The notes below the pieces were generated by a model. It was not told the origin of the DNA, did not search any database, and saw only the letters and a list, made by a program, of their open reading frames with translations. The position numbers were made by a program, and so were the translations under genes. Source: a phage. Taken from it: 64,000 nucleotides of DNA. The stretch lies in the sequence record PZ476263.1. One strand, 5' to 3'. Below, piece by piece: positions 51,065-64,000 of the stretch (the first letter of the stretch is position 1; every line of letters starts with the position of its first letter).

Positions 51065-51140
51065 GGCCCTTTAGCTCAGTGGTTAGAGCAGGCGACTCAT
51101 AATCGCTTGGTCGCTGGTTCAAGTCCGGCAAGGGCCACCA
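51065..51140 (+). tRNA. tRNA-Met(CAT), elongator type (could be Ile2 if C34 is modified)
   Basis: Full cloverleaf folded by hand, G1-C72, anticodon loop ctCATaa, CCA encoded. Confidence 0.85.
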
Positions 51141-51157
51141 CTCAATAGTTTATTTAC

Positions 51158-51249
51158 AAGATCATTCAGTAATTAAGCGAATGCCGGAAGCAGAACCGGA
51201 TCAACAAATGCGTACGGGTGTCATCGCCACCTAGCAACTGAATGATCTT
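51158..51249 (+). ncRNA. Long hairpin: 13-bp perfect inverted repeat enclosing 66 nt
   Basis: aagatcattcagt (51158-51170) pairs with actgaatgatctt (51237-51249). Inner stem ccgg-N8-ccgg. Followed by TTTT. Confidence 0.5.
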
Positions 51250-51276
51250 TTAAATTCTCTTAACCTCATAAAATCC

Positions 51277-51305
51277 TTGACATAATAAGAAATTCCTGAT
51301 AACAT
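51277..51305 (+). promoter_or_regulatory. Promoter TTGACA-N17-TAACAT with a TGn extended -10
   Basis: -35 at 51277-51282 and -10 at 51300-51305. Confidence 0.55.
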
Positions 51306-51332
51306 CTCTATATCGACTTAATTGAGGTGCTT

Positions 51333-51707
51333 ATGCCTAAAGCTGAAATCGTTACTAGAAAACGGGGTCGGCCTACTACAGAGGAAAGTATCGCTATCAA
51401 CACCGAGAAGGCGATTCTTCATGCTCGTTCAGAGTTTGCAAGACTTACTCCTCAGGCGATTAAGACTCTGGAAGGTCTACTCACTTCCGGTACAGAGAAA
51501 GTTAAAGAAACTACTGCGAAGTATATTCTTGAACAGGCTGAAAAAGCTAACAATCTGTACACGATGGAAGATAATGAGGAAGATTTAGCGGGAGGTTCAA
51601 CTTCTGCGGATTCTGATACTCATAAAGGCCCTTCTGATGTATTTAAGGATGCAATTCCTCTTACTACTCAAATCAGAGAGTATAAAATTGCAGAAGGTGA
51701 AAACTAA
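51333..51707 (+). CDS. Hypothetical DNA-binding-like protein; weak small-terminase candidate (124 aa)
   Basis: RKRGRPTTEES N-terminus and an acidic tail. ATG at 51333 follows GAGGTG. Confidence 0.3.
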   Translation: MPKAEIVTRKRGRPTTEESIAINTEKAILHARSEFARLTPQAIKTLEGLLTSGTEKVKETTAKYILEQAEKANNLYTMEDNEEDLAGGSTSADSDTHKGPSDVFKDAIPLTTQIREYKIAEGEN

Positions 51708-51727
51708 AGGCTCTTAGGGGCCTTTTA
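51707..51727 (+). terminator. Rho-independent terminator
   Basis: Stem aaggctc/gggcctt with a 4-nt loop, followed by TTAT. Overlaps the stop codon. Confidence 0.55.
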
Positions 51728-51946
51728 TTAATAGTTCTTTTTAATGTAGTTGCTTGGTGTAATTTTTCGGCAGATGGCTGCAACCATCCTATCGATAACT
51801 CATAGTTAGTGCTGCAAACACTGGCTACCTTAAAGAGAATTTAACTCGTCGAATAAGGAAGATGCTGATCTCAAAGTGAGGTCACTTACCGCAAGGGGTG
51901 TGCATAGACTCCCGCTTCCGAATAGACTATGTGGCGAGATGTATTT

Positions 51947-52028
51947 GGGGACGTGGCAGAGCGGTCGAATGCGCCTGACTGTAAATCAGGTATCCCACAC
52001 GGTGGTTCGAATCCATCCGGCCCCACCA
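51947..52028 (+). tRNA. tRNA-Tyr(GTA)
   Basis: Anticodon arm cctga-ctGTAaa-tcagg, 10-nt variable region, T-arm ggtgg-ttcgaat-ccatc, one A-G mismatch in the acceptor stem, CCA encoded. Confidence 0.8.
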
Positions 52029-52282
52029 AATTAAGAAGCAGGGTCGCTACCTGCAAGTCGTCGGACTGAGATTCCCTGAATAAGACCCGACTTTAAGGCG
52101 TACAAATGTTCGGTTTAAAGTCCCTTATCTCACAGTCGAAACGGCGCATCCTATTCAGCCGTGATGTGATGTAATCACTGACCTCTTTGAAGGATCATGG
52201 CATCCTATACAAAAAAAAAACCTGAATAATTTAGGTTTTAATGCCTGGGGGTTCGTAGCCCTATTACTAAGAGGACTTAACT

Positions 52283-52492
52283 ATGTTTACTATTAAAATT
52301 ATTGATATCGATGGAAATGAGACGGGTGTTTCAACAAGGCACTACAGATGGTACTCAAAAATGAATATTTTTGATGTGGAGGGTGGAGAATCTGTTTCTG
52401 TACCACCAAAAAGTCGTGCTTATGTAATGAATGACAAAGGAATAACCATCGGTAGATACACAAATACAGCGGATCAACGCGTTCTTAATTAA
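52283..52492 (+). CDS. Hypothetical protein (69 aa) embedded in the tRNA island
   Basis: RBS AAGAGGA. Its stop lies 1 nt before tRNA-Gly. Confidence 0.55.
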   Translation: MFTIKIIDIDGNETGVSTRHYRWYSKMNIFDVEGGESVSVPPKSRAYVMNDKGITIGRYTNTADQRVLN

Positions 52493-52493
52493 A

Positions 52494-52568
<75 letters not shown>

Positions 52569-52667
52569 AACACATATCCATCTGACGCGTTTATGGGGTT
52601 GACCTGATCAATCTTCTCCTAATTTCGTGTGAAGACATCATGATTGTTGGGATGGATAAACTTATTT

Positions 52668-52742
52668 TGGGGATTAGCCAAGCGGTAAGGCATCGGATTT
52701 TGATTCCGACATTCACTGGTTCGAGTCCAGTATCCCCAGCCA
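52668..52742 (+). tRNA. tRNA-Gln(TTG)
   Basis: Acceptor tggggat/atcccca, anticodon arm tcgga-ttTTGat-tccga, T-arm actgg-ttcgagt-ccagt, CCA encoded. Confidence 0.85.
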
Positions 52743-52747
52743 ATTAA

Positions 52748-52824
52748 CGGTGTGTAGCGCAGCTTGGTAGCGCATCTGGTTTGGGGCCAGAGGGCCGTTG
52801 GTTCGAATCCAACTACACCGACCA
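52748..52824 (+). tRNA. tRNA-Pro(TGG)
   Basis: Acceptor cggtgtg/tacaccg, D-arm gcgc-agcttggta-gcgc, anticodon arm tctgg-ttTGGgg-ccaga, T-arm gttgg-ttcgaat-ccaac, CCA encoded. Confidence 0.9.
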
Positions 52825-53695: not shown

Positions 53696-54050
53696 ATGTC
53701 TGCTACATTCGCACCTGCGAGTCGCAAGCAACAAATGGTTCTCGAATCTACAGCACAGATTATGGTAATAGGTGGTGCAGCAGGATCAGGTAAATCATAC
53801 CTTTTACAGTTGATGCCTTTGCTTATTGTAAACGACCCTAAAACAGCCTGCATCATGTTTCGTCGTACTGTACCGCAGATTCGTGGACAAGGTGGCTTGT
53901 TTGACAAAGCTAAAGATATTTATAACCAGCTGCCTCCGGTAGTTAAGCCGAAGTTTAAAGAGAACGAGATGACTGCTACATTCCCTAACGGAGCAACCGT
54001 TAAGTGGCAGTCTATGCAACACGTAAGTGATAAATACGACATCCAGGGGT
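53696..54050 (+). CDS. terL: Terminase large subunit, exon 1 (Walker A)
   Basis: GGAAGSGKS. The ORF stops at TAA 54050-54052, right after KYDIQG. The exon ends on the U at 54050. Confidence 0.8.
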
Positions 54051-54960
54051 AAAAATTTCCTGCCCATCGTATCTTAATCGGTGAAACTCTGTTATAATAA
54101 GTACAGACAATACCGAGATCCATTACCTGAAATGACAGTAGGGAGATATGATGAAAAAATTTGAAATTGTTCCAAGCAAACCTGAATTTTCCGTAAGTGA
54201 AGACGGGCTGATTATGTTTACCTCTACAGGTACTATTCTTAAGCCGTATGTTGATAAGGATGGTTACCACAGGGTTAGAAATTTCTCTGCTGGAGGTAAA
54301 TCTCATTACATCGCCGTTCATCGCGCCGTTGCTGAGGTTTTTGTTAAAAACCCTAACCCAAAAGTGTTTAAGATTGTTAATCACTTGGATAATGTTAAGA
54401 GCAACAATCATAAAACCAATTTGGAATGGACAACCGAATCATTAAACCGAGTTCATGCAGTTCATGCCAACGGTACAGCATCTGTTAGAAACAATGTTAA
54501 ATTTACAGAAGGTCAAGTCAGAAAGGTGTGTGAACTTTTGAGCTTGGGCTATCGGATAGTTGATATTGTGAAACTTACAGGCGTTGATAGATTCAATGTG
54601 ATGGCAATTAGAAGCGGAAAATCTTGGGTTCAGATCTCTTGTGAGTTTGAAACTTTAAAAGTAGAAAGAAAAGATACACTGTCTGAAAAGACGATTCTTT
54701 GGATTAAAGACCAAATTAATCGCCAAAGGTCAGATGATGAAATACTTTTAATGTCGGTAAGACTTACAAAAGAAGAGCTTGAAAGAGCAAAGAAGATTAT
54801 TTCATTGATGGATTGTAACGACTAATGCTGATGAGTGTAAGCATGTAGGGCCAAGCGGTCCGAAACGATACGCCAAGGATGGAAGATATAGTCTGAACTA
54901 TATGGTGACATATAGCTGCTTAAGCAGGGTTAAGATTAGCGATCTTAATCGAACACAATG
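54051..54960 (+). mobile_element. Group I intron (td-like, IA2-type core) carrying an HNH homing endonuclease gene
   Basis: The 3' part gaagatatagtctgaactatatggtgacatatagctg...ggttaagattagcgatcttaatcgaacacaatg closely parallels the T4 td intron 3' end as I recall it. It starts after a U and ends in G. Confidence 0.7.
54148..54825 (+). CDS. Intron-encoded HNH homing endonuclease (225 aa)
   Basis: GYHRV...HRAVAEVFVKNPNPKVFKIVNHLDNVKSNNHKTNLEWTT (I-HmuI / HNH_3-like). RBS AGGGAG. Confidence 0.8.
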   Translation: MMKKFEIVPSKPEFSVSEDGLIMFTSTGTILKPYVDKDGYHRVRNFSAGGKSHYIAVHRAVAEVFVKNPNPKVFKIVNHLDNVKSNNHKTNLEWTTESLNRVHAVHANGTASVRNNVKFTEGQVRKVCELLSLGYRIVDIVKLTGVDRFNVMAIRSGKSWVQISCEFETLKVERKDTLSEKTILWIKDQINRQRSDDEILLMSVRLTKEELERAKKIISLMDCND

Positions 54961-55020
54961 TGGAATTTACATTTATAGGTGTGGACGAAGGCACTCAGTT
55001 TGAGTGGGAGCAGTTAATCT
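54961..55020 (+). CDS. terL: Terminase large subunit, 60-nt exon 2 (Walker B)
   Basis: Joining gives ...KYDIQG-L-EFTFIGVDEGTQFEWEQLI, in frame. Ends on the U at 55020. Confidence 0.65.
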
Positions 55021-55341
55021 AGCTGCCTCGTACAGTAATGTACGATGAGAAATTCTTGTGAATTGCTGGAAAATCCTTAGAGCTTGTAAAACTACAACAT
55101 GACCTGCAAAGGTGAGTGTGAATGTTAAAAATTTACAAGATTGGACGATCAGCCTCCAAGCCTCTTTACGAGAGGAAGGTTCAACGACTAGCCGAAAGGC
55201 GTAGATCATAAGCAAATGATGATCGAAGTGCAAGACCCCTACCTTATTGGTAGGGTGAAGATATAGTCTGATCTGCATGGTAACATGCAGCAGTGCTTGA
55301 GTGCACGGCAACGAACTTGCGATCCGTTGCGAACATAACAG
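55021..55341 (+). mobile_element. ORF-less group I intron (td-like core)
   Basis: gaagatatagtctgatctgcatggtaacatgcagc...gcgaacataacag mirrors the 3' core of intron 1. Internal ggttcaacgactagccgaaaggc. The alternative 3' end at 55329 is also in frame. Confidence 0.6.
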
Positions 55342-56420
55342 TAGAATACATGATGTCTCGTCTTCGTTCCAGTTCTTCTTACCCTTCACGAATGGTAATT
55401 AGTTGTAACCCTGATCCTGATCATTATCTTCGTAAGATGGTTGATTGGTATCTCGATAAGGATGGTTATCCTGATCCTACAAAGGATGGAGTCATTCGAT
55501 ATTTCGTTCGAGTTGATGACCAATACATGTGGGGCGAATCAGTAGAAGAGCTTAAGAAGCGGTACGGTAAGAAATGTAAGCCTGTTTCTTTTACATTTAT
55601 ATCTTCTACTATTTACGATAACCCACCAATGCTTATTAACAACCCAGACTATCTAGCACAGCTGGAAGGTCTTAATGAGGTTGACAGAGCAAGACTGTTA
55701 CACGGCAACTGGGATGCACGTCCTCAGGGTGCTAACTATTTTAAACGTTCTTTTCTTAAAGAGGTTGATGTTCTTCCTTTAGGTGTAGATAAGGTTAGAT
55801 CATACGATAAAGCAGGAACTGAACGTTCTACAGGTAATAAAACACCTGACTTTACAGCCGGAATCGGTGTGGCGAGAGATCAGGACGGAATTTATTATCT
55901 TTTTGGCGATTATTGTGAAGAGTTTGTTGATGAAGGTGATTGGTCTACTGGCAACCTTGGTAGGTTCTGTAAGAAAGCTGGTGAACGAGATACGATCATT
56001 ATGAAACAAGCAATTCATGACGGTGATGATGTTAGAATAATATTCCCTGTTGACCCTGGTCAAGCGGGTATTGCTGAATTCACTACATCTTCCCGAGAAT
56101 TATTAAATCAAGGATTCATTGTTGAGAAAGACCCAACTCCTGGTAACAAGAAGAAGCTTGTACGCTTCTCTCCGTTTGCTAACCTTGCTCAGAACGGATT
56201 TGTTAGGATTGTTAAAAAGTCTTTCCCTTTGGATACCTATGAAGCATTAATGAAAGAGCTTGAATCTTTCAATGGTGAAAGGTCAACAGGGACACGTAAA
56301 GATGACTGGGTGGATGCTATCTCAACCGGAATAAATTTCCTTGAGAAAACAGAAATAGTCAGGGCTGTTACAATACCACGACCTTCTGCCCCAACACTTT
56401 ATTCGAAGTATCGACGATAA
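55342..56420 (+). CDS. terL: Terminase large subunit, exon 3 (nuclease domain)
   Basis: ...L-EYMMSRLRSSSSYPSRMVISCNPDPDH.... Spliced total is 1494 nt, giving 497 aa. Confidence 0.7.
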
Positions 56421-61151: not shown

Positions 61152-61170
61152 TTTTAATAACTATCTTAAA

Positions 61171-61194
61171 GGTCACCTTCGGGTGGCCTTTTTT
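61171..61194 (+). terminator. Rho-independent terminator GGUCACC-UUCG-GGUGGCC-U6
   Basis: The same 18-mer occurs at 19895-19912 on the other strand. Confidence 0.85.
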
Positions 61195-61275
61195 ATTATG
61201 CCTGTACATTTTGGATAAAATAGTGTACTATTATAAGATAGGCCCTTAATATAATCAATGACGAAGGAGTTATTA

Positions 61276-61887
61276 ATGTCTAAATCAACTCACTTAGAAA
61301 TCTTTCGAAGTGAATATCACATGCTCAAATTCTTTGGGGAATATCTTGAAAAGTTAGATGTTAATACATCTGCTCGATTGGGAGCTTTCCTTTATAGTTA
61401 TGACGGAAACTTAGTTCTGGCCCGTGGCCTTTATGATTTTCTTTCTCAAATGGAAAAAATGACTGCCTTGGGTATTGATGTTAAATCATCTACTCAGAAA
61501 GGTACTAGCTTCTTGGTATTTTTTAAAGAAAAACCAAAAGCCCCTGAAAAATTCCGTCAAGATGTTAAAAAGATTGAAGCTTTGAAAGAAGCAATTGTAG
61601 TAGCTACTCCAGCTAAAACTATGGAGGAGACTATCCTTGTTTCTACGAAAGTAGAAGAAGAGGGTAAATCTGAAGAGACTGTGGAAGTAGAAGAAAAAGT
61701 TGTTAAGTCTTCTCGTAGTCAAGAAGAAAAAGCAGAGATCTTAGCAAAAGCGGAAGAACTTCGTGATGACAGTAAGAAAGCTGCTGCAAAAGCTGCACTC
61801 GAAGCTTTCGGTATGGAACACGGTGTTTCTCTGAGCAAAGGTAAAACCTTTGATGCGATGTTGGAAGATTTAGCTGCTGCACTTTAA
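61276..61887 (+). CDS. Hypothetical structural-module protein (203 aa)
   Basis: ATG at 61276 follows AAGGAG. Lys/Glu/Ala-rich C-terminal half. Confidence 0.55.
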   Translation: MSKSTHLEIFRSEYHMLKFFGEYLEKLDVNTSARLGAFLYSYDGNLVLARGLYDFLSQMEKMTALGIDVKSSTQKGTSFLVFFKEKPKAPEKFRQDVKKIEALKEAIVVATPAKTMEETILVSTKVEEEGKSEETVEVEEKVVKSSRSQEEKAEILAKAEELRDDSKKAAAKAALEAFGMEHGVSLSKGKTFDAMLEDLAAAL

Positions 61888-61940: not shown

Positions 61941-64000
61941 ATGTCTGAATACAATGATAAGGTCGTAGAGGCTTTTGTTACTGCCCCAGATCCTGTCGTT
62001 ACTACCAGTGGTGGTGGAGTTATTTTTAACGGTATTGAAACTCGTGATACCGTTTCTACCACTTTGGTTGGTGATGGTACTGTAACTGCGCCTCTTCAAG
62101 CACAAATTCGTGTTTCTCGTCGAGCAGGTAACGCCCTTCAGGTAGTTCAAACTGAAAGTGAACAAGGTCTGTTTGCATCGGCAGGCGAAGCTAAAGTTTC
62201 CGTATCTGCTGTCAACGTTGCAAAATATGTTACAGCTGAAGAAGCTGCAAGTCAAGGTGATGCTGCACTGGAAGGTGTTTTAGTAGAACCTGTTCACTTA
62301 ACCACCACAGCAGCAACATCTGGATTACAGATCAGTGCAGATCCTCTGACTGGTAAAAAATCTCGAATCGGTCTTGTTGTTTCACCTGCTGCCACTAACG
62401 CACTGTCTTTAGAAGAAGATGGTTTGTCTGTTAAAGTGTCTCCAGCTATTGATAACAACATTCAAGTTCGTGAAGGTGCTCTGTATGTTCCTCCGAGCAA
62501 TGCAGAAGTATCTCCTGATTCCGACAACAAGCTTGAATTACGTTCCAATGGTCTTTATGTTGCCACTGTAAAAGGTGACAAAGGCGACCAGGGTGAACAA
62601 GGCCCAGCGGGTCCTCAAGGTGAAGTAGGTCCAGAAGGTCCGCAAGGTCCGGCTGGAGAGAAGGGTGACCAAGGTGAACAAGGACCTCAAGGTGACAAAG
62701 GGGATCAGGGCGTAGCTGGTCCAGCAGGTCCACAAGGTGCTCGTGGTCCAGAAGGTCCTCGTGGTGAAACTGGCTTGGGCATTAATGTTCTGAGTTCTTT
62801 AGACTCGGAAGATCAGTTGCCTTCTGTTGTTGATTTACAGAATGGTGATACCTATGTAATCGGACAAAACTTCTTTACTGTCATCACTGAAGGTGGTGTA
62901 AAACAGTGGAGAAATATTGGTAACTTCGCAGGCCCAGAAGGTCAATCTGCATTTGAAGTTGCTGAGACTGCTGGATTTGTTGGTACTGTAGATGATTGGT
63001 TAGCAAGTCTTCGCGGTGCTGATGGTATCGGTCTTCAGCTTCTTGGCGCTCTGCGTCGTGTGGAAGACTTACCGGAAGAAGGCAACCGACAAGGCGATGC
63101 TTATATCATTCAGGAACAAATGTATGTTTGGACTGGTGATGTAGATCGTTGGCAGATTGTAGGTCAGATTGGCCCAGAAGGTCGTTCTGCTTATCAGGTT
63201 TGGTTGGCGAATGGCAATACTGGATCACAAGTTGACTTCCTTAACTCACTCAAGGGTGAAAAGGGAGATACGGGTGAGCAAGGTCCTCAGGGGGAAAGGG
63301 GCGAAGACGGTAAAAACGCAAACGCAATCAACATCCTTGGTAGTGTAGCTGATGAAGCTTCTCTTCCAGAAGGCGCTGATGCAGGTGATGCCTACCTTAT
63401 TGGGACTAACGTCTTTGTATCAGACGGCGCTGGTAACTGGGAAAATTTGGGATCTTTCCAAGGCCCACAAGGTGATCAGGGTGTTAAAGGTGACAAAGGC
63501 GATAAGGGAGACAAGGGCGATAAAGGTGATAAAGGTGATGACAACTACACCATTGCTGTTGCTAACGGTTTCGTCGGATCTGTAACTGAATACCTTGCGT
63601 CCATTAAGGGTGAGAAAGGTGATGTAGGTGCAACTGGTCCCCGTGGTCTTACTGGTCCACAGGGTGAACAGGGTCCCGTCGGTGCTGGTCTGAATATTCT
63701 CGGATCTTTCGAGGATGAGTCTGAACTGCCAACTTCTGGAATTACCGAAGGTGATGCCTACCTGATCCAAGGATTCCTTTATATCTTTACTGGAGGTTCT
63801 TTTAAGAACGTTGGTGAAGTTAAGGGTCCTAAAGGAGATCAGGGCGATGTAGGACCTGCGGGTCCACAGGGTGAGCAGGGTATTGCGGGACCACAAGGCC
63901 AGCAAGGTTTAGTTGGACCTGCGGGTCCTCAAGGCGAGACTGGTCCACAAGGCCCAGAAGGTCCAGAAGGTCCTCAAGGTCCTCAAGGAGCGCAGGGTGA
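61941..64000 (+). CDS. Collagen-like modular tail fibre protein, 5' partial (open to the window end)
   Basis: ATG at 61941 after TAGGAGA, with no stop through 64000. Contains five Gly-X-Y tracts alternating with repeated globular modules. Confidence 0.8.
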   Translation, partial: MSEYNDKVVEAFVTAPDPVVTTSGGGVIFNGIETRDTVSTTLVGDGTVTAPLQAQIRVSRRAGNALQVVQTESEQGLFASAGEAKVSVSAVNVAKYVTAEEAASQGDAALEGVLVEPVHLTTTAATSGLQISADPLTGKKSRIGLVVSPAATNALSLEEDGLSVKVSPAIDNNIQVREGALYVPPSNAEVSPDSDNKLELRSNGLYVATVKGDKGDQGEQGPAGPQGEVGPEGPQGPAGEKGDQGEQGPQGDKGDQGVAGPAGPQGARGPEGPRGETGLGINVLSSLDSEDQLPSVVDLQNGDTYVIGQNFFTVITEGGVKQWRNIGNFAGPEGQSAFEVAETAGFVGTVDDWLASLRGADGIGLQLLGALRRVEDLPEEGNRQGDAYIIQEQMYVWTGDVDRWQIVGQIGPEGRSAYQVWLANGNTGSQVDFLNSLKGEKGDTGEQGPQGERGEDGKNANAINILGSVADEASLPEGADAGDAYLIGTNVFVSDGAGNWENLGSFQGPQGDQGVKGDKGDKGDKGDKGDKGDDNYTIAVANGFVGSVTEYLASIKGEKGDVGATGPRGLTGPQGEQGPVGAGLNILGSFEDESELPTSGITEGDAYLIQGFLYIFTGGSFKNVGEVKGPKGDQGDVGPAGPQGEQGIAGPQGQQGLVGPAGPQGETGPQGPEGPEGPQGPQGAQG
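62574..62780 (+). repeat. Gly-X-Y collagen-like tract 1 (23 triplets)
   Basis: GDKGDQGEQGPAGPQGEVGPEGPQGPAGEKGDQGEQGPQGDKGDQGVAGPAGPQGARGPEGPRGETGLG. Confidence 0.95.
63255..63317 (+). repeat. Gly-X-Y tract 2 (7 triplets)
   Basis: GEKGDTGEQGPQGERGEDGKN. Confidence 0.9.
63462..63542 (+). repeat. Gly-X-Y tract 3 (9 triplets, including GDK x5)
   Basis: GPQGDQGVKGDKGDKGDKGDKGDKGDD. Confidence 0.9.
63609..63689 (+). repeat. Gly-X-Y tract 4 (9 triplets)
   Basis: GEKGDVGATGPRGLTGPQGEQGPVGAG. Confidence 0.9.
63825..64000 (+). repeat. Gly-X-Y tract 5 (runs off the window)
   Basis: GPKGDQGDVGPAGPQGEQGIAGPQGQQGLVGPAGPQGETGPQGPEGPEGPQGPQGAQG... Confidence 0.9.

Follow-up and report, generated by a model that had tools for sequence, protein, structure and literature searches.

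The open reading frame (ORF) that closes the 64,000-nucleotide (nt) stretch of phage DNA analyzed here (sequence record PZ476263.1; hereafter, the window) is probably the 5' half of a gene for a homotrimeric, segmented collagen-like virion fiber of a Vequintavirinae myophage, an ortholog of phiTE_215 and CB7_10 that would serve as an accessory adhesion filament. The ORF is a single open frame on the forward strand that starts at the ATG at position 61941, with an AGGAG motif 11 nt 5' of it, and is still open when the window ends at position 64000, 686 codons later; the 3' end is cut off, as the initial annotation of this DNA had noted, and what we say of the protein's C-terminal half rests on orthologs that are ~83% (nt) or 50-60% (amino acids, aa) identical. 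The same annotation had called the product a collagen-like fiber, and three results bear this out: the translation matches Pfam Collagen (PF01391) at 91 bits (cut-off, 27.2; E = 3.9e-26), it matches the PHROG 3904 family, 'tail fiber protein', over aa 32-668 (E = 6.3e-145), and the ortholog CB7_10 has been found in virions by tandem mass spectrometry (MS/MS). PHROG 3904 is also matched by the N-terminal domain alone (3.3e-13) and by the tip of the orthologs (3.3e-42). A mechanical parse of the 686-codon translation gave the following layout, in which A and B denote two kinds of non-collagen unit.

61941..64000, + strand: fiber ORF, first 686 codons (PHROG 3904 at 6.3e-145; full-length orthologs of 1,099-1,266 aa)
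61941..62573, + strand: N-terminal domain, aa 1-211, non-repetitive, presumed virion anchor and beta-rich shaft (conserved in 35 phage records)
62574..62780, + strand: collagen tract 1, aa 212-280, 23 Gly-X-Y triplets (from the parse; 13-23 triplets among orthologs)
62781..62927, + strand: A1, beta-rich bead, aa 281-329 (independent hidden Markov model (HMM), 35.8 bits; four strands in the AlphaFold2 (AF2) model, with a predicted local distance difference test score (pLDDT) of 80-90)
62943..63017, + strand: B1, helix-loop-helix unit, aa 335-359 (HMM, 32.8 bits; two short helices at low confidence in the AF2 model)
63033..63170, + strand: A2, aa 365-410 (HMM, 47.0 bits)
63183..63254, + strand: B2, aa 415-438 (HMM, 32.6 bits)
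63255..63317, + strand: collagen tract 2, aa 439-459, 7 triplets (7 triplets in nearly all orthologs)
63327..63458, + strand: A3, aa 463-506 (HMM, 52.4 bits)
63462..63542, + strand: collagen tract 3, aa 508-534, 9 triplets including GDK x5, i.e., a run of KGD steps (from the parse)
63543..63608, + strand: B3, aa 535-556 (HMM, 32.1 bits)
63609..63689, + strand: collagen tract 4, aa 557-583, 9 triplets (from the parse)
63690..63821, + strand: A4, aa 584-627 (HMM, 51.4 bits)
63825..63998, + strand: collagen tract 5, aa 629-686, at least 20 triplets, leaves the window (23 triplets in LTH01 and UPEC06)

This layout agrees with the initial annotation on the unique N-terminal region (211 aa measured, ~210 aa claimed) and on Gly-X-Y (GXY) tracts of 7-23 triplets that include GDK x5 (23, 7, 9, 9 and at least 20 triplets in our parse). 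The four A and three B units had also been recognized with correct motifs and coordinates, with the correction that B is ~24 aa long rather than 28 aa; A measures ~44 aa. The A units follow the consensus LNILGTLASVSDLPATGNEEGDAYLIGGDLYVWDGTAWVNVGQI and the B units the consensus SAYEVAVENGFVGTEAEWLASLKG. That these units are true repeats is evident from two tests, the second being the stricter. First, Smith-Waterman comparisons gave z-scores of 9.7-17.7 between A units and of 6.9-11.7 between B units relative to 1000 residue shuffles, none of which (0/1000) reached the observed A-A and B-B scores, while A against B scored ~0. Second, HMMs trained on non-orthologous proteins only (535 A and 387 B units) recovered from the window protein precisely the four A units, at 35.8-52.4 bits, and the three B units, at 32.1-32.8 bits, as opposed to top scores of 5.0 (A) and 5.6 (B) bits over 500 shuffles of the whole protein. 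Hence, the formal repeat detection whose failure had been named as a possible refutation succeeded.

The units do not, however, cycle as a three-part super-module, as had been proposed. Their order in the window protein is irregular, Col23-A-B-A-B-Col7-A-Col9-B-Col9-A-Col20+ (Col, collagen tract with its number of triplets), the parts are shuffled in hundreds of relatives, and the second half of the full-length relatives consists of (A-Col)x3-4 without any B. A comparison of repeat number among relatives, which had been suggested as a check, gave 1-15 copies of A and 0-20 of B, in many orders, among 246 related proteins. That is, A, B and collagen act as independent building blocks. The view that the repeat DNA is diverged and reflects old modular duplication rather than recent slippage held up well: repeat copies share 45-58% nt identity, and no long DNA repeats were found outside the GXY tracts (DNA-level repeat finders see the GXY periodicity only). 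Further, the window units A1 to A4 are 67, 65, 79 and 51% identical, respectively, to the units at the same positions of phiTE_215 but only 22-45% identical off the diagonal. Since each A unit of the window is closest to its positional counterpart, the unit duplications are old and the array predates the split of these phage genera.

Neither A nor B corresponded to a named family in our domain-level searches of Pfam, NCBIfam and PHROG, where only whole-protein PHROGs labeled 'tail fiber protein' matched; nor did the literature and libraries searched describe the two, at the domain level, as repeat families embedded in collagen. Both units are nonetheless real and widespread, and structurally uncharacterized. 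An exhaustive profile search of 1.84 billion cluster representatives returned 7,677 with a match to A at E<=1e-3 and 1,371 at E<=1e-10, with up to 15 copies per protein. (A word-indexed search with the non-collagen A-B-A-B segment had returned a single match, which reflects the limit of its sensitivity and not rarity; the full-length query and the profile search returned thousands.) Matches in BFVD were putative tail fibers of Ralstonia phage RP12, Erwinia phage Rebecca, Escherichia phage 4MG and Cronobacter phage GAP31. Collagen tracts were present in 119 of the 121 best new A representatives. At least three GXY triplets lay within 8 residues of the unit on the N side in 80% and on the C side in 81% of 1,428 A units from 246 proteins, and the A units that lacked flanking GXY mostly abutted B or another A. 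Because ~80% of the A units border GXY on each side, A is a module set within collagen triple helices, linker-free on both sides.

In an AF2 monomer model of aa 272-446, based on a 33-sequence alignment, A1 came out confidently (pLDDT 80-90) as a beta unit of four strands, and B formed two short helices that were modeled with low confidence, as would be expected if B folds only in the trimer. Comparisons with known structures provided leads only as far as likeness to known trimerization units is concerned. A Foldseek search of the A-B model against the PDB had no match below E = 0.35, and the B profile found nothing meaningful among PDB sequences. The A profile gave only marginal matches there, to phiKZ gp184 (E = 0.0015) and to the JBD30 DUF2793 protein (8rk3_a; E = 0.045). 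We considered a relationship of A with gp184, an inner-capsid protein, and set it aside, the match extending over 34 residues and being judged motif-level and without functional weight. Similarly, A was not accepted as a foldon: hhalign aligned the second half of A with the foldon hairpin only (LYVWDGTAW with YYVRKNGAW, 11 columns, P = 1e-3, probability 21%).

Alternatively, the A units might be small lectin-like, ligand-binding modules that are repeated along the fiber for multivalent weak adhesion to polysaccharide or flagellin. Their high and variable copy number (1-15 per protein) would suit such a role, and the invariant aromatic and acidic positions (GD.Y, Y/W-V-W and W) could make a binding groove; however, most of the conserved positions are hydrophobic core and turn residues, and no carbohydrate-binding family was matched. 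In addition, the A units are position-orthologous and 51-79% identical between phages of different host genera, and the continuity of ~80% of them with collagen on each side is what would be expected of a node on a three-fold axis. Hence, we regard the ligand-binding explanation as unlikely and favor A as a structural node of the collagen rod.

The GDK x5 tract (63462-63542) had been flagged as a plausible length-variable site, that is, a slippage-prone sequence that varies fiber length within populations, an idea to which five identical amino-acid triplets with a 9-nt periodicity lend some appeal. We now consider this highly improbable. The tract between A3 and B3 has 9 triplets in the window protein and in 16 orthologs of widely differing sequence (two more distant orthologs have 10 and 11), and the GDK run itself is confined to three phages, the window phage, LTH01 and UPEC06, all of which have it at equal copy number. 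The codons of the run are mixed and its 9-nt units match at only 75%. A lysine in the Y position followed by G-D or G-E makes strong interchain ion pairs in hydroxyproline-free triple helices, and repeated KGD steps are reportedly among the most stabilizing of the hydroxyproline-free collagen sequences. Since KGD steps stabilize such helices so strongly, selection for stability is a sufficient explanation of the run. Relatives do differ in the length of the first tract (13-23 triplets) and of the tracts in the C-terminal half, whereas the c7, c9 and c9 tracts (c, collagen tract) of the N-terminal half keep their lengths across orthologs with different sequences, which fits a structural constraint on spacing.

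The 8 kb around the fiber ORF are 82.7-83.1% identical to Escherichia phages vB_EcoM-LTH01 and UPEC06 (Vequintavirinae) and 74-76% identical to Certrevirus-type phages of Pectobacterium, Cronobacter, Enterobacter and Klebsiella; judging from the sequence, the source phage is an rV5-related Vequintavirinae myophage of enterobacteria. The N-terminal 211 aa recur in 35 phage records at 33-74% identity, always heading a long collagen-repeat protein, and the window gene is an ordinary ortholog of already deposited genes. Its full-length counterparts in LTH01 and UPEC06 are 1,266 aa long, and those in phiTE (phiTE_215) and CB7 (CB7_10) 1,099 aa. Beyond the region covered by the window, they carry three to four more A units with collagen between them, a conserved 46-aa segment, one to three foldon-like hairpins and a ~100-aa C-terminal domain; the hairpins, which lie outside the window, match Pfam Fibritin_C (PF07921; 5.6e-10 for the three tandem copies of LTH01).

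With its closest orthologs, the window protein shares an N-terminal domain (50-74% identical), an identical layout of the N-terminal half (c23-A-B-A-B-c7-A-c9-B-c9-A) and the place after the capsid gene, but at the nt level it is only ~83% identical to the nearest records. The product of the gene upstream was absent from the records, as was an exact 41-mer from IMG/VR. The relatives also differ among themselves: they have 7 or 8 A units and 1-3 foldon hairpins, and their C-terminal tracts vary in triplet number. Presence in the virion has been found for the ortholog CB7_10 only, which is annotated as 'MS/MS confirmed': it was detected in purified virions with 39 unique peptides and 46% coverage, and was designated a putative tail fiber on the strength of its collagen domain only (PMC7344957).

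Comparison of LTH01, an E. coli phage, with phiTE, a Pectobacterium phage, gave identities of 50-82% for the A and B units, 50% for the N-terminal domain and 62% for the tip; that is, A and B are conserved as well as or better than the termini. The ~100-aa tip (L001:18441-18737 in LTH01 against the C-terminus of phiTE_215 in L003), at 62% identity, is thus diverged no more than the shaft. Such a tip, which is not hypervariable, would be unusual for a host-range-determining receptor binder and appears to argue against that role; because the tip is no more diverged than the shaft, we favor an accessory adhesin.

The first ~66 and last ~75 aa of the N-terminal domain are common to a shorter, 124-aa variant. 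The AF2 monomer model of the N-terminal domain was unusable (mean pLDDT 47). Within aa 60-212, the short motif (D/T/G)N.(L/I)......G(L/A).(V/A) recurs four times, as GNALQVVQTESEQGLFA, TNALSLEEDGLSV, DNNIQVREGALYV and DNKLELRSNGLYV; these repeats are reminiscent of beta-spiral or beta-helix fiber shafts. We also observed the A/B/collagen/foldon shaft on other N-termini (P0035, P0047 and P0098; P0055-P0062 and P0100-P0102), including Tail_spike_N (PF18668), an Mtd_N-like region, and leaders of ~50 aa and ~124 aa, which shows that the virion anchor is exchanged modularly among phages.

Under the model that we favor, three chains, whose association is predicted from the sequence and from the foldon-like units of the orthologs, would be anchored to the virion via the 211-aa N-terminal domain and continue as a thin rod. 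The rod would consist of short Gly-X-Y triple helices stabilized by charge pairs (there are 12 KGD steps in the collagen tracts of the window, and hydroxyproline is not available) and broken, linker-free, by two trimeric nodes, the ~44-aa four-stranded beta unit A and the ~24-aa helix-loop-helix unit B. In the full-length orthologs the rod would end in one to three foldon-like beta-hairpins followed by the ~100-aa tip domain. The A, B and foldon nodes may nucleate each short triple helix and keep its register, with A and B doubling as hinges to give a flexible 'beads on a string' filament. The 291-387 GXY residues of the full-length proteins, at 0.286 nm each, amount to 83 nm in phiTE_215 and 111 nm in LTH01, beads and end domains excluded; because GXY alone spans 83-111 nm, the whole fiber would be ~100-150 nm long and very thin. 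Such a fiber would act as an accessory adhesion or host-surface-scanning filament rather than the main host-range determinant, and would work together with a ~215-aa protein encoded immediately downstream (phiTE_216 family), a possible tip adhesin or assembly factor. Weighing against parts of this model, the AF2 runs were monomeric, B and A2 were modeled with low confidence, and the N-terminal domain could not be usefully modeled at all.

The ~215-aa partner gene, which for the window phage would lie outside the window, is found 3' of the fiber gene in each of the six genomic contexts that we examined. The relevant features, including those on the 5' side of the fiber gene in the window, and with E values of the partners given against the LTH01 partner, are as follows.

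61168..61191, + strand: strong terminator-like hairpin (10-bp stem and T-run) just 3' of the major capsid protein gene; a terminator is annotated at the same place in phiTE
61258..61887, + strand: 209-aa gene of the phiTE_214 family (55% identical to phiTE_214; PHROG 3259 at 1e-48)
L001:18786-19424: partner gene in LTH01
L003:10339-10989: partner gene in phiTE (E = 8e-48)
L007:10678-11325: partner gene in a 153-kb phage (E = 8e-37)
L008:8658-9302: partner gene in a Salmonella-phage-like genome (E = 2e-35)
L006:11394-12062: partner gene in a 259-kb phage, its product ending in DUF4376 (E = 3e-12)
L009:9486-10157: partner gene in a further genome (E = 5e-07)

Fiber and partner travel as a cassette, in contexts that vary from a head module to a tail-fiber cluster and a jumbo-phage contig; no description of such a cassette was found in the literature and libraries searched. 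The partner ortholog CB7_11 has been detected in virions. A role of the partner as tip adhesin or assembly factor would also explain why the tip domain is conserved. In the window, the genes 5' of the fiber region encode the large terminase, portal, prohead protease, a phiTE_211-like protein, the decoration protein and the major capsid protein. The hairpin then parts the capsid gene from a separate unit that starts with the 209-aa gene and continues with the fiber gene. The product of the 209-aa gene is probably a minor head protein, based on a weak match to 'minor head protein inhibitor of protease' and on its L008 homolog, which carries Pfam Phage_Inh_N.

The slot that follows the cassette is variable (L001:19437-21134 in LTH01, L003:10991-11485 in phiTE and L008:9312-10183). 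In LTH01 and UPEC06 it is occupied by a second collagen protein; the LTH01 copy measures 565 aa and includes a weak CBM_5_12-like stretch. In phiTE the slot holds Pagoda, the capsid decoration protein phiTE_217, and in L008 it holds Phage_tail_NK and Phage_head_fibr genes. We found no similarity between the second collagen protein of LTH01 and the Pagoda protein of phiTE, and the idea that the two are homologs was dropped.

With respect to location on the virion, for which no description was found for this fiber protein in the literature and libraries searched, we lean moderately toward the periphery of the tail or baseplate. The L007 version of this cassette of shaft, tip and partner has a Tail_spike_N N-terminus and sits inside a tail-fiber cluster, behind a sheath initiator, a wedge protein, a tail-fiber assembly protein and, next to it, a phiTE_241-like fiber. 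The N-terminal domain of the window protein also has a weak match (E = 0.024) to residues 122-200 of gp015, the baseplate-anchored long tail fiber of phage 7-7-1. The cryo-electron microscopy (cryo-EM) study of phiTE modeled two fibers that are other proteins (a short one, a coiled coil with Ig-like domains, and a long one, a beta-helix) and reported a third, unmodeled baseplate fiber candidate, described as 'previously annotated' (PMC11972413). The CB7 study names CB7_36 and CB7_10 as tail fiber proteins (PMC7344957); CB7_10 is the ortholog of phiTE_215, and CB7_36 would be the counterpart of phiTE_241.

Several observations weigh against a tail location. The fiber gene is placed 3' of a terminator, with the major capsid gene on one side and the head-tail adaptor genes on the other, and adjoins the Inh-like minor head gene; in phiTE, the Pagoda capsid decoration protein is encoded two genes further on, and the L008 copy is near a Phage_head_fibr gene. 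Further, the product of phiTE_215 (pTE215) is never named in the main text of the phiTE cryo-EM paper, in which both modeled fibers are other proteins. The same fiber could thus be anchored on the capsid or neck instead, as a head fiber or whisker that would capture flagella or surface polymers ahead of tail engagement, by analogy with the head fibers of the flagellotropic phages 7-7-1 and phiCbK and possibly with SPP1 gp12. The complete gene order (major capsid protein, terminator, Inh-like gene, fiber, partner, then Pagoda in phiTE or Phage_tail_NK and Phage_head_fibr in L008, then head-tail adaptors) would suit this placement. So would the fibritin-type foldon hairpins in the C-terminal region, fibritin being the neck whisker protein of T4, and a tip that is conserved across phages of different host genera, as befits a generic adhesin more than a specific receptor binder. 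The Certreviruses phiTE and CR3 are flagellotropic (PMC11972413, PMC7344957), phage 7-7-1 binds flagella via head fibers (PMC12796354), and collagen-like capsid binders such as SPP1 gp12 are known (PMC7602432).

However, cryo-EM of the phiTE capsid reports the major capsid protein, DEC and Pagoda only, and after pTE217 (abundance index 79,432) the top unassigned virion protein, pTE203, reaches only 533, so pTE215 would not be a high-copy capsid decoration. The L007 fusion of the shaft-tip-partner cassette to Tail_spike_N within a tail-fiber cluster, as well as the weak similarity to the baseplate-attached 7-7-1 fiber, also speaks against the head. Taken together, we consider a head or neck anchor possible but somewhat unlikely, and favor the periphery of the tail or baseplate.

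Two other features of the window deserve mention. The large terminase (TerL) gene is split (53696-56420), with exon 1 at 53696-54049 (Terminase_6N positions 2-91) and exon 2 at 55293-56420; between them are an HNH/NUMOD4 endonuclease ORF (54148-54825) and a group I intron match (54986-55290; RF00028, 78.7 bits vs. a gathering score of 50). TerL of the closest relatives, LTH01 and UPEC06, is uninterrupted, at 495 aa. There is also a tRNA cluster at 51065-52824 with Met(CAU), Tyr(GUA), Gly(UCC), Gln(UUG) and Pro(UGG). In the collagen ORF, where the commonest triplet is GPQ, 31% of codons specify Gly, Pro or Gln, vs. 13.6% in seven head genes. The idea that tRNA-Gly, -Pro and -Gln supply the collagen ORF was borne out in part: CCA and CAA are used, but Gly is mostly encoded by GGT, which tRNA-Gly(UCC) does not read. 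Therefore, a link between tRNA supply and the collagen ORF is only partly plausible.

Collagen-like phage fibers are common in annotation and structurally almost unstudied, and the non-collagen beads described here are two discrete, very widespread modules. If the beads are indeed registration nodes, they should aid in reading the architecture of phage fibers and in annotating thousands of "hypothetical" or "tail fiber" proteins, and could provide compact trimerization tags for designed bacterial collagens. Also, phiTE_215 and its partner phiTE_216 are virion proteins that the phiTE cryo-EM paper, in its main text, does not assign by name, and may bear on the first attachment of a flagellotropic Certrevirus. 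It is tempting to go further and hypothesize that A and B represent two large unnamed families of collagen-registration domains (i.e., internal trimerization knots with which phages assemble very long hydroxyproline-free filaments out of short segments), analogous to the foldon and the multiplexin domain with no demonstrable kinship, and that the Certrevirus-like fiber and its partner form a head- or neck-anchored first catcher of the flagellum or cell surface that does not belong to the baseplate fibers and is absent from the phiTE cryo-EM atlas; in this full form, we hold the hypothesis to be doubtful.

Finally, elements of the architecture proposed here have precedents in known systems. Collagen-like phage fibers with flanking trimerization modules are known from EPclA and EPclB, side-tail fibers of E. 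coli O157:H7 prophages, which are trimeric and hydroxyproline-free, with charge-rich collagen flanked by non-collagen trimerization modules (PMC3368898). These proteins have one collagen domain between PfN/PCoil and PfC/Pf2, whereas the window protein has at least five collagen segments and the nodes in question are A, B and foldon-like; in fact, no Pfam phage-fiber family of the PfN/PCoil/PfC/Pf2 type was matched, the matches being Collagen only for the window protein and Collagen plus Fibritin_C for the full ortholog. The trimerization domains of the multiplexin collagens XV and XVIII (3n3f, 9bnb) compared with A at weak scores, with Foldseek not significant, and were not listed at E<=10 by the A profile against all PDB sequences, i.e., there is no sequence similarity; they are also single terminal domains of animal proteins, as opposed to the internal repeats of A.

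T4 fibritin (wac) is likewise a trimeric fiber whose folding is nucleated by a small beta-hairpin unit, and the orthologs studied here carry one to three foldon-like hairpins, but its shaft is an alpha-helical coiled coil rather than collagen, A and B, and its foldon is terminal, whereas here a ~100-aa domain comes after it. Collagen-like or fibrous head appendages are also known, such as SPP1 gp12 and phi29 gp8.5 (PMC7602432); together with the head fibers of 7-7-1, these are thin trimeric accessory fibers that are encoded near head genes and are thought to help adsorption. SPP1 gp12 differs in being tiny and high-copy, at the centers of hexamers, while the phiTE abundance data do not support a high copy number for pTE215; the phi29 fibers, on the other hand, are made of repeated helix-turn-helix units that are reminiscent of B.

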